Source: a virus
Lineage: Duplodnaviria; Heunggongvirae; Uroviricota; Caudoviricetes
Virus record (IMG/VR): IMGVR_UViG_2585427728_000007
Reading direction: 5' to 3' (one strand)
DNA length: 42,114 bases
Position numbers and translations under genes: made by a program. The notes under the pieces were generated by a model that was given only the letters and a program-made list of their open reading frames with translations, was not told the DNA's origin and made no database searches. This document shows positions 2,878 to 25,897 of the stretch, in pieces; position 1 is the first letter of the stretch; each line of letters starts with the position of its first letter.

Positions 2878-3557
2878 CAGAGTAATACTCCCCATGCCCC
2901 TACATCAAAACCACTGATGAATTCGTTATCCATATCAAAACCAAAAAATTTTGAACCTTCCGATGGAGTTTCCACCGAAGGTGTTTCAACGCTGCCAGCC
3001 CATACACCAGCAGCTTTAACGGTGAGATAACCCTGTTTGATAGCGGCTATCAGTTCGAGTGACACATCAGAAATATCAGTCTCAGGGAATACCCAGACCG
3101 ATATCGTCATGTCCTGGTTATCGACGATCTGCATCTTCAGTCCAGAGCCTGCGGTAGCAGCGTCAAGGATGGGAGGCAGAGAGTCGTTCCGACCATCCCA
3201 GTTGTTGATAGCGATTTTCGCTTTCAGAATGATGCGGTACGTCTCATCACTCAGCGTCGTATAGCCAGAATCAGGATCATATGGCCCTTGCCAGATGCCC
3301 TGGTCATATCCGAGCCCGTCAGTGTCCCAGCTGAAATAAACGCCGCTAATTGGCTGGCTGACTATACGACTACGCCCAATCCACAGGCCGAGGATATCGA
3401 GTTGCACGCCAACCGCCGTATCGATATCGAAGGCTGTTACAAGCCCTGACATAGTGCTGGACACATCAATCAGCGGGCGGGTGCTCAGATCTATATGGTC
3501 AAAAAAGAGTGGCTTGGTAGCATGGTAGTTAGTGATCAGTTCGGTGTATTTGCTCAT
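2877..3557 (-). CDS. Baseplate protein (Mu gp48 / P2 gpI-like position)
   Basis: Start taken at internal ATG 3557 (MSKYTELITNYH...), which forms an ATGA overlap with the stop of the J-like gene; position between baseplate J-like gene and tail fiber. Confidence 0.55.
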   Translation of the reverse strand: MSKYTELITNYHATKPLFFDHIDLSTRPLIDVSSTMSGLVTAFDIDTAVGVQLDILGLWIGRSRIVSQPISGVYFSWDTDGLGYDQGIWQGPYDPDSGYTTLSDETYRIILKAKIAINNWDGRNDSLPPILDAATAGSGLKMQIVDNQDMTISVWVFPETDISDVSLELIAAIKQGYLTVKAAGVWAGSVETPSVETPSEGSKFFGFDMDNEFISGFDVGAWGVLL

Positions 3558-23000: not shown

Positions 23001-23438
23001 TCATCGAAGGCATTGCGTCCTGATGTACTCCTGCAGGTAGTTAACCTGCGCGGTTATCCTGTCTATTCCACTTCGGAGACGGTAATAATTGAGTTCAGCA
23101 TCTGCTGTAAGTCTTGGGCTTTCTCCATCGCCCATGCTGCTGGCTCCGGTCGTTGACTTTGCACAGGTGGCGGCGACTTGCAGGCGCTTACGCCCAGCAG
23201 AAACATCAGCACGGAGACTTTCGATAGTCGCGTTAGCATCAGCAAGCTCCTTTGTGTATCTGGCGTCTAGTTCTGCTACATCACGTTGACGCTTCTGCAT
23301 GTCAGCGATGATGGATGCGGCTTTGTCGCGCTGCTCTTTGTAGGCGATGGCGTTATCACGGTAATGATTAACAGCCCATAACAGGCAAACGATGATGCAG
23401 ATAACCAGAGCGGAAATAATCGCGGTGACTCTGCTCAT
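23001..23438 (-). CDS. Rz: i-spanin Rz
   Basis: 145 aa; N-terminal transmembrane segment [23 protein letters not shown] as in lambda Rz, followed by a coiled-coil periplasmic domain; immediately downstream of the endolysin gene. Confidence 0.8.
23063..23245 (-). CDS. Rz1: o-spanin Rz1 (embedded in Rz in the +1 frame)
   Basis: 60 aa ORF wholly inside Rz; lipoprotein signal with lipobox LGVSAC followed by a Pro-rich region ([13 protein letters not shown]), as in lambda Rz1. Confidence 0.75.
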
Positions 23439-23911
23439 ACCTCAATCTCTCTGACCGTTCCGCCCGCTTCTTTGAATTTTGCAATCAGGCTGTCAGCCTT
23501 ATGCTCGAACTGACCATAACCAGCGCCCGGAAGTGAAGCCCAGATATTGCTGCAACGGTCAATTGCCTGACGAATATCACCGCGATCAATCATCGGTAAA
23601 GCGCCACGTTCTTTAATCTGTTGCAGTGCCACAGCGTCCTGGCTTTTCGGAGAGAAGTCTTTCAGGCCAAGCTGCTTACGATAGGCATCCCACCAACGGG
23701 AAAGAAGCTGGTAACGCCCGGCGGCTGTTGATTTGAGTTTTGGGTTTAGCGTGACAAGTTTGCGAGGGTGATCGGAGTAATCAGTGAATAGCTCTCCGCC
23801 TACAATGACGTCATAACCATGATTTCTGGTTTTTTGACGTCCGTTATCAGTTCCCTCCGACCACGCCAGCATATCGAGGAACGCCTTACGTTGATTATTG
23901 ATTTCCACCAT
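23435..23911 (-). CDS. R: Endolysin (lambda R-type lytic transglycosylase)
   Basis: 158 aa; [53 protein letters not shown]... is near-identical to the lambda R protein as recalled. Confidence 0.9.
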
Positions 23912-24218
23912 CTTCTACTCCGGCTTTTTTAGCAGCGAAGCGTTTGATAAGCGAACCAATCGAGTCAGTACCGATGTAGCCGATAAACACGCTCGTTATA
24001 TAAGCGAGATTGCTACTTAGTCCGGCGAAGTCGAGAAGGTCACGAATGAACCAGGCGATAATGGCGCACATCGTTGCGTCGATTACTGTTTTTGTAAACG
24101 CACCGCCATTATATCTGCCGCGAAGGTACGCCATTGCAAACGCAAGGATTGCCCCGATGCCTTGTTCCTTTGCCGCGAGAATGGCGGCCAACAGGTCATG
24201 TTTTTCTGGCATCTTCAT
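23895..24218 (-). CDS. S: Holin / antiholin (lambda S-type, dual start)
   Basis: 107 aa; [39 protein letters not shown]... is near-identical to lambda S, including the Met1-Lys-Met3 dual-start motif. Confidence 0.9.
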
Positions 24219-24460: not shown

Positions 24461-24536
24461 TGGTGCTGGTTAACGGACTTGAACCGCTACCCATTCGCTT
24501 ACAAGGCGACCGCTCTACCATTGGAGCTAAACCAGC
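24461..24536 (-). tRNA. tRNA, anticodon TGT (Thr) by manual fold
   Basis: Minus-strand 76 nt GCTGGTT-TA-GCTC-CAATGGTA-GAGC-G-GTCGC-CTTGTAA-GCGAA-TGGGT-AGCGG-TTCAAGT-CCGTT-AACCAGC-A-CCA; perfect 7 bp acceptor stem, GTTCAAGTC T-loop, U33 and A37 flanking TGT, encoded CCA. Confidence 0.65.
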
Positions 24537-24541
24537 ATGTT

Positions 24542-24616
24542 TGGCGGGACAGCGTGGACTCGAACCACGATAAGAAGGTTAACAGCCTTCCGTAATGACC
24601 TTTATACGACTGACCC
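24542..24616 (-). tRNA. tRNA, anticodon GTT (Asn) by manual fold; atypical D-arm
   Basis: Minus-strand 75 nt GGGTCAG-...-GAAGG-CTGTTAA-CCTTC-TTAT-CGTGG-TTCGAGT-CCACG-CTGTCCC-G-CCA; perfect anticodon and T stems, GGTTCGAGTCC T-arm, one T-T mismatch in the acceptor stem, D-loop lacks the usual GG. Confidence 0.55.
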
Positions 24617-24671: not shown

Positions 24672-25184
24672 TTAAACGGTATGATATTTCATTCTGGCTG
24701 CCTCAAAAGCCGCAGCGGCAAGTTCGGCAGTGTCATGGTATCCAAGGTTAATACACTTTCCAGACGCATTAATTCTTGCTCTCCATTTCCCGTACTTAGC
24801 ATCCCAAGACACGCCACGGTATCCAGATTTATTATTCTTCTGAATTTTCCTGTTTTGCATATTTTCGGAATGAGTGACAAGACGAAGATTTGATATCCGG
24901 TTATCTGTTCTTACCCTGTTGATGTGATCAATAAAACCATCGGGCATGGTGCCATAAACAATCAACCATGCCAGTCTGTGAGCAGGGTATGCTTTACCAT
25001 TAATCATAATCATTAAATACCCATCAGAATTTATTGATGAGCATTTCTTGAAAGCAAAACGAGAGTTCCATGTCAAAGTGGTCCTCTCTCTCCCCTGCCT
25101 CCATCTCCAGTGAAAGTCGCCTGATGATGGATTGTAATCAACAACAGAAAGCACCATTTCTGGCGTTAATTTTATTTCTTTCAT
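24672..25184 (-). CDS. HNH homing endonuclease with AP2-type DNA-binding domain
   Basis: 170 aa; HNH motif ...DGFIDHINRVRTDNRISNLRLVTHSENMQN... plus AP2-like ...GYRGVSWDAKYGKWRARI...; AT-rich gene sitting between Q/pR' and the tRNAs. Confidence 0.75.
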   Translation of the reverse strand: MKEIKLTPEMVLSVVDYNPSSGDFHWRWRQGRERTTLTWNSRFAFKKCSSINSDGYLMIMINGKAYPAHRLAWLIVYGTMPDGFIDHINRVRTDNRISNLRLVTHSENMQNRKIQKNNKSGYRGVSWDAKYGKWRARINASGKCINLGYHDTAELAAAAFEAARMKYHTV

Positions 25185-25302
25185 CGCTTTACCTTAGGGA
25201 TAGAGCCTGTTCGCGTAGATATGACAGCCAAGAGCGGAGCGATGTTTCCACCACCATATCTCAGGCCCATATCACTAAGACTCTTGTTTTGATTGCACGC
25301 GA

Positions 25303-25331
25303 ATGCAAAAAAGCCCACAGGAGGTGGGCTT
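25303..25331 (-). terminator. Rho-independent terminator (tR' candidate) downstream of pR'
   Basis: Minus-strand AAGCCCAC-CTCCT-GTGGGCTT followed by TTTTGC (six U including the stem end); about 45-60 nt downstream of the predicted pR' start. Confidence 0.6.
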
Positions 25332-25371
25332 GTGATGGTTGCTGAATGCAAAAGCAGCAGCATATGTGAAT

Positions 25372-25401
25372 ATTATGGCTAAATGGATAATTGCATGTCA
25401 A
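25372..25401 (-). promoter_or_regulatory. Late promoter pR' candidate (-35 TTGACA, 18 bp spacer, -10 CATAAT)
   Basis: Minus-strand TTGACA at 25401..25396 (inside the last codons of Q), CATAAT at 25377..25372; immediately followed by a terminator, as expected for a Q-antiterminated late promoter. Confidence 0.5.
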
Positions 25402-25897
25402 GGCCTTTAACAGCAACATGCTTAACTTTCTCAACACGTTTACGCATTTTGAAAGCATTTTGCATTGGCTGGTACAAAACAAATAACGACGCTTTCAGGA
25501 TGTCGTCAATTTCGTTTCTACAGGTTGCCAGTGAAGGTTTTCTCCATCCCTCGCCACCACGTCCACACATCTTGCGTGGCTTTGCAGTCGCGTGATAGTA
25601 GGATGCAATTGCTCGCTTAGATGAACCATGAGCGTAGTAGCTGAGGAGGATGCCAAAGGCTTTCTTGTCAATGTACATGACGGAATCGACGACCTGAGAA
25701 ATCAACATTCCATCATCATCATTGCACATTGGCCTTGTCATAACTCTTCCCGGCTCTACGCTCTCCATGAACTTAGCTATTACGCTGCTCATGCGCTTTT
25801 CCAGACGACCTGAATAAACCCATGCGCCCCACAGTTCAAGCCAGCCATTCAGCCACTCATGCTGTTCTTTGGTGAGGTTTAGTTCTCTTATGCCCAC
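25379..25897 (-). CDS. Late gene antiterminator Q-like protein
   Basis: 172 aa ORF at the canonical Q position (after the nin genes, before pR'/tR' and lysis genes); Cys/His-containing. Call rests on synteny rather than strong sequence recognition. Confidence 0.55.

Follow-up and report, generated by a model that had tools for sequence, protein, structure and literature searches.

The DNA around the 3' end of the Q-like gene very probably forms the switch that controls late genes in a lambdoid phage or prophage of the phage 21 family; this switch lies on the minus strand and carries an HNH endonuclease gene as a selfish passenger. Coordinates refer to the window, the whole 42,114-nucleotide stretch of DNA that was analysed. 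By every sequence-level feature that defines such a system, the locus qualifies as a phage 21-type Q cassette: a Q21-family Q gene stands directly upstream on the same strand, a sigma-70 promoter lies at the 3' end of that gene, candidate direct-repeat half-sites for Q occupy the interval between the -35 and -10 elements, a predicted -10-like pause element begins 12 nt past the second repeat (QBEd), two putative intrinsic terminators separate the pause element from the late genes, and holin, endolysin, Rz and small terminase genes follow on the minus strand below position 24218. The original prediction of a Q-utilisation module is supported by element-by-element homology to the experimentally defined pR'-QBE-SDPE-tR' cassette of phage 21. 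The features, which are listed in the table, are ordered pR', a first leader (type B) with terminator 1, an untranslated stretch of 120 nt, the HNH gene, a second leader (type A) with terminator 2, two tRNA genes and the lysis genes. The phage 21 comparison draws on record OL657228, which annotates the -35, QBE, -10, start, SDPE, tR', tRNA-Asn and tRNA-Thr, and on the structures 6P18/6P19/6P1A and 6JNX.

Table. Features of the putative late-gene switch and adjoining genes, in window coordinates.
Feature	Position	Strand	Details or basis
Q antiterminator gene, phage 21 family, 172 aa	25379..25897	minus	PF06530 and Q21 structure match
pR' -35, TTGACA	25401-25396	minus	within Q codons Leu-Asp-Met
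Predicted QBEu, AATTATCC	25392-25385	minus	position and 8-bp direct-repeat layout as in the annotated phage 21 QBE (OL657228)
Predicted QBEd, ATTTAGCC	25384-25377	minus	Q stop TAG (25381-25379) falls inside
pR' -10, CATAAT	25377-25372	minus	shares last base of QBEd, as in phage 21
Predicted +1 (A)	25365	minus	7 nt past -10; by homology
Predicted sigma-dependent pause element, TATGCT(G)	25364-25358	minus	+2..+8; TATGCT at 25364-25359, +2..+7
Leader hairpin 1, no U-tract	25362-25340	minus	+4..+26; RNA fold
Predicted terminator 1 (type B tR')	25331-25305	minus	8-bp stem, 5-nt loop, U6; fold and HK629 annotation
Untranslated stretch, 120 nt	25304-25185	minus	between terminator 1 and HNH gene
Free-standing HNH endonuclease gene, 170 aa	25184-24672	minus	inside late leader
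Type A leader: TAAGCT (24666-24661), tR' hairpin and U8	to 24621	minus	canonical phage 21-type
tRNA-Asn	24616-24542	minus	ARAGORN, Rfam
tRNA-Thr	24536-24461	minus	ARAGORN, Rfam
Lysis cassette S/R/Rz	23001..24218	minus	Pfam holin PF05106, Rz PF03245; in HK629: holin, endolysin R, Rz

The Q protein had been described as not strongly recognisable, with the promoter module cited in support of its assignment. The assignment holds, and the protein is in fact clearly recognisable: it matches Pfam PF06530 (Phage_antitermQ) at E 1.1e-25 and the Q21 structures 6jnx/6p18 at E 1.6e-92 over residues 1-162, and because of the latter match its identity is independent of the promoter. In an alignment with the Q protein of phage 21, residues 1-102 are identical except for H95R, residues 103-162 are approximately 63% identical, and a C-terminal extension of 10 residues is present relative to Q21. 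This extension arises because the open reading frame continues through the -35 element and the Q-binding repeats, whereas the Q gene of phage 21 ends 6 nt before its -35; the six C-terminal residues of Q21 itself make contact with RNA polymerase (bioRxiv 10.1101/651190). The cassette is not of the lambda Q type, in that Pfam returned only PF06530 and DUF1133, and a PDB search with Q recovered Q21 chains only, the lambda Q chain being absent at E values up to 1. An NCBIfam search gave no match for Q, the HNH protein or the endolysin.

The promoter had been placed within the 3' end of the Q gene, and it is indeed there, as TTGACA-18 bp-CATAAT on the minus strand. The hexamer TTGACA does fall in Leu-Asp-Met codons, as stated, although these are not the last codons of the gene: Gln-Leu-Ser-Ile-stop come after them, so that the 18-bp spacer contains the last four sense codons and the stop codon. 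The -35 hexamer is identical at the annotated pR' -35 position in phage 21, Sf6 and HK75. The corresponding promoter is annotated pR' in HK75 and in Sf6, where it is described as "nearly identical to phage 21 late promoter" and accompanied by a qut site and tR'. Phage 21 itself has a spacer of 17 bp and the -10 sequence AACACT. The predicted start, an A, is the counterpart of the annotated late start of phage 21, an A immediately 5' of the SDPE.

Whether such motifs might be functionless chance matches was assessed by comparison with shuffled sequence, in which weak sites proved as frequent as in the real sequence (promoters, 5 real vs 6.1 shuffled; terminators, 8 vs 5.7). The late promoter, however, matches consensus at 11 of 12 positions and is the sole match of that quality in the 5 kb scanned, the chance expectation for the promoter pattern with at most one mismatch being 0.26 per whole window. 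The motifs also coincide in position with the annotated pR' and tR' of phage 21, Sf6 and HK75, and their conservation extends over many genera. A scan that took one genome per species found 32 Q21-family loci, whose proteins are 60-98% identical, in genera that include Escherichia, Atlantibacter, Shimwellia, Pantoea, Enterobacter, Cedecea, Yersinia, Rahnella, Xenorhabdus, Buttiauxella, Serratia, Morganella, Providencia, Edwardsiella and others. In 33 of the 34 loci tabulated, a script recovered one common layout, in which TTGAC[A/T] and 1-3 nt precede two 8-bp repeats and a -10, with a TA..-T element 12 nt past the second repeat; the 34th (L157) has TAAGCTA, which the script's stricter pattern missed, and it was retained in the co-variation table described below. 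Judged from this conservation, a chance origin is effectively refuted and deserves almost no credence.

Between the -35 and the predicted start region, the window closely follows its relatives. In phage 21 the order is TTGACA, TC, ATTGAGCA (QBEu), AATGAGCA (QBEd), ACACTATTCGCA and TAAGCTG; in Sf6 it is TTGACA, TGC, AATTAGCC, ATTTAGCC, ATAATTAGAAGG and TAAGCTG; and in the window TTGACA, TGC, AATTATCC, ATTTAGCC, ATAATATTCACA and TATGCTG. Phage 21 and the window thus share gene order, the TTGACA hexamer, 8-bp repeats with C:G pairs at -13 and -21, a start A directly before a -10-like element at +2, and a canonical tR' followed by two tRNA genes. The C:G pairs, which are essential in phage 21 (PMC6606751), are kept at predicted positions -21 (C 25386) and -13 (C 25378) of the window. 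QBEu of the window carries a G-to-T change relative to QBEd, a common polymorphism that is present in about half of the related contigs. The predicted binding sequence of the window Q is AATTATCCATTTAGCC.

A search for a -10-like, pause-inducing element in the initial transcribed region had been proposed as a check, and TATGCT at +2..+7 is a good candidate. QBEd and this element are separated by 12 nt in the window, just as they are in phage 21 and Sf6. TATGCT is one base removed from the TAAGCT of phage 21 and is nearer to consensus than phage 21's own element, and the same TATGCTG occurs naturally in a Pantoea relative (L134).

The hairpin that follows pR' belongs to a leader with two hairpins, the first of which lacks a U-tract and is the counterpart of the first hairpin in other two-hairpin leaders of the family. 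The second consists of AAGCCCAC-CTCCT-GTGGGCTT at 25331-25311 followed by T6 at 25310-25305. Its stem is modest, with a fold of -12.5 kcal/mol and a z score of -3.7, and none of 200 shuffled sequences was as stable. If transcription starts at 25365, the hairpin would occupy +35..+55 and the U-tract +56..+61, giving a predicted terminated leader RNA of approximately 60 nt. The GC-rich hairpin and U-tract are present after the start, as claimed, although the hairpin begins slightly closer to it than the stated 45-60 nt. Likewise, a terminator does follow soon after pR', but a second one lies on the far side of the HNH endonuclease gene; the original prediction had missed both the intervening gene and this canonical second terminator, approximately 700 bp downstream. 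The type A leader begins 5 nt past the HNH stop codon and is identical to the leader of Sf6 and phage 21, and its terminator, at 24665-24621, has a fold of -19.8 kcal/mol (z = -4.5). Both hairpins are predicted terminators, and each is far more stable than shuffled sequence.

Leaders of this family come in two forms. In the one-hairpin form, found in phage 21, Sf6, Pantoea and Cedecea, the hairpin overlaps the pause element and the U-tract lies at about +40. In the two-hairpin form, found in Yersinia, Rahnella, Morganella, Providencia and the window, the second hairpin is the putative terminator and its U-tract lies at +54 to +99. Because two-hairpin leaders recur in relatives, the leader of the window represents a normal variant of the family, although its first leader end, at about +61, differs from that of phage 21, at about +46, and the HNH gene separates it from the canonical leader. 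Among copies of the type B leader, variation is confined to the hairpin loop. In four contigs (L086, L102, L091 and L105), moreover, the type B hairpin is the sole leader terminator. Together with the normality of two-hairpin leaders, this identifies the hairpin, at the level of sequence and fold, as an alternative tR' allele, the terminator of a two-hairpin leader allele designated type B.

Sf6 (AF547987; gene 59) and HK75 (HM173637) carry a Q allele that is 98-99% identical in DNA to that of the window, with the same -35, repeats and -10. Homology with these phages breaks exactly past the -10 (25372) and is picked up again at about 24667, five bases downstream of the HNH stop codon. Behind their -10, Sf6 and HK75 continue directly with TAGAAGG-TAAGCTGCC... 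and have a single tR'; in the window, 705 bp replace 7 bp, and they hold the HNH gene as well as the type B leader with its terminator 1. An interpretation of these 705 bp as a single HNH cassette with its own leader and terminator was dropped, as the leader occurs elsewhere without that HNH gene.

An abrupt end of homology directly past the -10 could indicate that the module is broken, the Q site having been uncoupled from a working pause element by leader replacement or HNH insertion in a defective prophage. The pause element is not identical to that of phage 21, and some HNH copies are decaying, which would agree with such a history. However, a -10-like element nearer to consensus than that of phage 21 stands at exactly the native distance, and the same leader is found behind both Q/QBE alleles. 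An identical pR' and type B leader are also present in HK629 and in five PhiR12 phages, all of which are deposited complete genomes with named hosts. Finally, Q21-loaded complexes were obtained by Yin et al. with -40..-1 of PR'21 and the SDPE at its native position (bioRxiv 10.1101/651190). Because this much is enough for Q21 loading, replacement of the downstream leader should be tolerated, and a broken module is accordingly a highly improbable explanation of the locus. A functional late switch remains the preferred reading.

A close relative of the whole arrangement is HK629 (JQ182735), an Escherichia phage of the genus Lambdavirus. Over the stretch that starts with Q and closes with the type A leader it is 98.7-99.8% identical to the window, HNH gene included, and it carries the B-HNH-A arrangement at 99.8% identity. 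Its record annotates the same hairpin as a rho-independent terminator, sets pR' downstream of that hairpin, and leaves the QBE, the pause element and the second terminator unannotated. HK629 differs from the window in having no tRNA genes after the second terminator.

The position of pR' in the HK629 record bears on another explanation, under which the hairpin at 25331-25305 would be an insulator of the HNH cassette or a terminator of early or Q transcripts, with the real pR' downstream and Q acting only on the canonical terminator (24663-24621). Besides the "putative late promoter pR'" of the HK629 annotators, this idea draws on the complete canonical phage 21-type leader and terminator past the HNH gene, and on the fact that most phages with the window Q allele use only the canonical terminator. 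The hexamer given for the HK629 promoter, TCTACG, is not promoter-like, and that candidate, within 25304-25185, was rejected; a consensus scan likewise gave no promoter-like site on the minus strand in the interval that separates the hairpin from the HNH gene. Upstream of the downstream TAAGCT copy lies only the end of the HNH gene, without a -35, a -10 or Q-binding repeats; the conserved -35/QBE/-10/SDPE geometry is found upstream of the hairpin instead. The occurrence of the hairpin as the only leader terminator in the four contigs named above, and the normality of two-hairpin leaders, also speak against an insulator. A downstream pR' is thus very unlikely, and the HK629 record has probably put pR' in the wrong place, leaving the promoter at the end of Q as the preferred late promoter.

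The HNH protein combines an HNH_3 domain (PF13392, E 2e-18) with an AP2 DNA-binding domain (PF00847, E 1.6e-8), so that a nuclease motif and a DNA-binding domain share one small stand-alone reading frame, a defining feature of free-standing HNH homing endonucleases. It is 100% identical to the HNH protein of HK629 and less than 60% identical to other phage relatives, many of which are annotated as homing endonucleases. In its small intergenic gene and its DNA-binding domain it resembles free-standing phage HNH homing endonucleases such as T4 mobE (PMC2790892). Further likenesses to homing endonucleases are that the gene is present or absent at a fixed site, is near-identical across differing backgrounds, and has decayed in some copies. 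It differs from the T4 mobE type in its predicted location within a Q-dependent leader, between terminators, and in belonging to a block that includes a second leader allele. Its domains and distribution suggest that the protein may be an active nuclease and its gene mobile.

The distribution of the block was followed in IMG/VR contigs and complete E. coli genomes. Among 80 contigs with the same Q allele, approximately 67 have the type A leader only and 12 have B-HNH-A at identical offsets; among 41 contigs with an exact match to the B leader, approximately 31 have B-HNH-A. Two contigs (L086 and L102) carry B by itself, attached to the flank that comes after tR' in HK75; in two others (L091 and L105), B precedes another HNH gene, which is 42% identical. 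Across about 45 viral contigs, identity of the block is 97-100%, and at least 99% behind the window Q allele, while these contigs differ from one another in the upstream gene, the Q allele, and the tRNA and lysis genes. The full B-HNH-A arrangement was also found in 39 of 5,426 complete E. coli genomes. The empty allele that lacks the block is CATAATTAGAAGGTAAGCTGCC-type DNA. In phage 21-type backgrounds, the junction of the B leader falls within the pause element (…ATTCGCA TA|TGCTGCT…). Decay takes two forms: a 1-nt deletion in the HNH copy of one contig (L110) creates a stop at codon 4, and the PhiR12 phages keep only the first ~67 nt of the gene.

The B-HNH-A tandem could have arisen by insertion of B and the HNH gene into a type A phage, or else the B-only forms could have arisen from the tandem by deletion between two GGCTTTTTT stretches. 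Entry of the cassette may occur between the pR' -10 and the pause element or, in phage 21-type backgrounds, within the pause element (TA^AGCT). If the B leader and HNH gene do travel together as a mobile cassette, a correctly spaced pause element and a terminator of its own would let the host phage keep its late switch. Such a mobile cassette in the Q-dependent leader and, as separate proposals, a recognition code at Q residues 95 and 128 and a leader RNA that acts like StxS are offered tentatively, as conjectures that may well fail.

The switch itself is proposed to operate as follows. RNA polymerase with sigma-70 would start constitutively at pR', with +1 at about 25365, whereupon sigma region 2 would re-bind TATGCT at +2..+7 and the polymerase would pause. 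Without Q, transcription would end at the first hairpin and its U6, at about +61, releasing a leader RNA of about 60 nt. Once Q has accumulated, two protomers would bind the direct repeats AATTATCC and ATTTAGCC in the spacer, and Q would be loaded onto the polymerase while it is paused. There it would build a nozzle around the RNA-exit channel, as seen in the structures of Q21, that stops terminator hairpins from forming. The modified polymerase would then pass terminator 1, the HNH gene, terminator 2 and the tRNA genes to reach the lysis and structural genes. The tRNA-Asn and tRNA-Thr genes are the first genes past tR', as in phage 21 and Sf6, and the lysis cassette would provide the first late protein genes under Q control. 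Since the HNH gene lies between two terminators without a promoter-like site of its own, this selfish passenger is predicted to be silent in lysogens and expressed only late. Viability of the phage would be preserved because a pause element, at exactly the native distance from the Q site, is provided by the segment that precedes the HNH gene.

The same logic is known from the pR'-qut-tR' region of lambda, with its 6S RNA, and from the pR' leader of Stx phages: a constitutive promoter, a sigma-dependent promoter-proximal pause, a Q site within the promoter and, in lysogens, a short leader RNA that ends at a terminator. Lambda additionally requires a -35-like element. The Q proteins of lambda and the Stx phages are members of different families and show no obvious homology to Q21 in sequence (PMC6606751). 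In Stx phages, the pR' leader sRNA StxS has a regulatory role of its own (PMC7547250), and the predicted ~60-nt leader RNA of the window may have a comparable role in trans. At gathering thresholds, Rfam recognised only the two tRNAs and returned no family for the leader RNA; a permissive search of the leader gave a chance-level P9 match on the opposite strand (18 bits vs 43 for gathering, E 0.33).

Because the promoter and terminator are annotated in close relatives, the late switch is already known. A literature search that covered HK629, and HNH or homing endonucleases at the late promoters of lambdoid phages, turned up no account of an HNH gene in the leader, and no description of residue-to-base co-variation in the Q21 family was found in the literature searched. 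The HNH gene in the leader and the co-variation are modest additions and not a new kind of system. The main value of the analysis is in annotation, as it gives positions, for this group of phages, to pR' and its Q-binding repeats, to the pause element and to the two terminators. The locus also offers a natural example of a selfish nuclease gene tolerated in an antitermination leader, a tolerance explained by the preserved geometry of the pause element.

The co-variation concerns the residues through which Q reads its site. In Q21, H95, A124, R127 and R128, in the recognition helix and the preceding helix, and R113, in a loop, read the bases of TGAGCA (Shi et al., PMC6606751). Two of these five residues are different in the window Q (R95 and N128), for which TTATCC and TTAGCC are the half-sites; TTA[G/T]CC with R95 and N128 stands against TGAGCA with H95 and R128 in phage 21. 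Among close relatives, the C-terminal allele of Q pairs perfectly with the QBE, a pairing that was not taken as independent evidence because the two are physically contiguous; distant alleles of other genera were used instead. The register of the repeats was anchored on the pause element, as anchoring on the -35 left a 1-nt ambiguity and a noisy table.

Across distinct alleles, Arg at residue 128 accompanies G at hexamer position 2 in 14 of 14 cases, Asn accompanies T in 9 of 9, and Lys, represented by one allele, accompanies T. At residue 95, Arg accompanies C at hexamer position 6 in 13 of 14 alleles and His, Tyr or Leu accompanies A in 9 of 10, the lone exception in the latter group being due to a 1-nt register shift; all of these counts are inflated and do not represent independent events, because Q adjoins its site and alleles share ancestry. 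The pattern is what direct base readout predicts, and it supports the repeats of the window as the cognate QBE of the window Q. Residues 95 and 128 appear, on this comparison of alleles, to form a two-position recognition code for bases 6 and 2 of TGAGCA-type half-sites. If the code is true, Q/qut specificities would be predictable or could be re-engineered, and the preference of the window Q vs Q21 between AATTATCCATTTAGCC and ATTGAGCAAATGAGCA would track residues 95 and 128. The co-variation table thereby provides a testable hypothesis for Q specificity and for orthogonal antitermination parts. All four half-site combinations, TGAGCA, TGAGCC, TTAGCC and TTAGCA, are seen among the alleles, and both states of residue 128 occur within Yersinia and likewise within Morganella.

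Comparison of the window with loci L127-L157, which carry related antiterminator genes, revealed that two bases of the TGAGCA-type half-sites predicted to bind Q covary with two residues of the Q21-family protein. Base 2 is G where residue 128 is Arg and T where it is Asn or Lys, while base 6 is C where residue 95 is Arg and A where it is His, Tyr or Leu. All four combinations of these linked half-site states are found in nature among the Q21-family loci. Judged from this sequence covariation, residues 95 and 128 look like a putative two-position recognition code for the half-sites.

Features of the late-gene region in the window
Feature	Position	Strand	Remark
TTGC repeat motif, TTGCGTGGCTTTGC	25572-25585	+	TTGC-N6-TTGC; antisense to Q
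Half-sites in the residue-base comparison	25385-25392, 25377-25384		compared with Q codons 95 and 128
Small hairpin	25340-25362	-	+4 to +26
60-codon ORF	25181-25363	-	
HNH gene	24672-25184	-	in the leader
tRNA-Asn(GTT) and tRNA-Thr(TGT)	24461-24616	-	directly after the second terminator

The TTGC repeat motif coincides in position with the site annotated for CII binding at the antisense promoter paQ in the phage 21 record. TTGC-N6-TTGC is by itself not rare, with 6 matches observed in the window and 3.1 expected.

Placement of the late promoter pR' differs among records of related phages. In that of HK629 (L001, JQ182735), a TCTACG at 3190-3195, 3' of the terminator and equivalent to window positions 25219-25214, is labelled "putative late promoter pR'", whereas by the Sf6 and HK75 annotation the real pR' homologue is located upstream of this element, where it extends over the 3' end of the Q gene. 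The HK629 annotation is probably misplaced.

In the leader predicted to be transcribed from pR', the small hairpin overlaps the predicted pause element and continues directly after it, and a first hairpin at this position is kept across Q21-family leaders. In phage 21 this hairpin also serves as the terminator, while the window has a leader of the two-hairpin type. The 60-codon ORF begins with an ATG within the predicted pause element, at +3 of the predicted transcript, and reads across terminator 1 (the terminator nearest pR'); its TGA stop shares bases with the start codon of the HNH gene (ATGA). Every copy of this ORF is identical, and it could be of chance origin.

The HNH gene shows signs, at the sequence level, of a homing-endonuclease life cycle. 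Near-identical copies occur across many backgrounds; the copy in locus L110 carries a frameshift with a stop at codon 4, and in PhiR12 phages the gene is cut down to ~67 nt. Furthermore, L091 and L105 contain another HNH gene, 42% identical, in the region 3' of the same leader.

The tRNA-Asn and tRNA-Thr genes come right after the second terminator, an arrangement that also holds in phage 21 and Sf6. Contigs that share the HNH block differ in this respect: some have the pair, others a variant of it (89% identity), and others lack it. One IMG/VR contig, L125 (IMGVR_UViG_2713897161_000001), is 100% identical to the window in all compared segments of the region that extends from Q to the endolysin gene, and may represent this phage itself or a very close relative.
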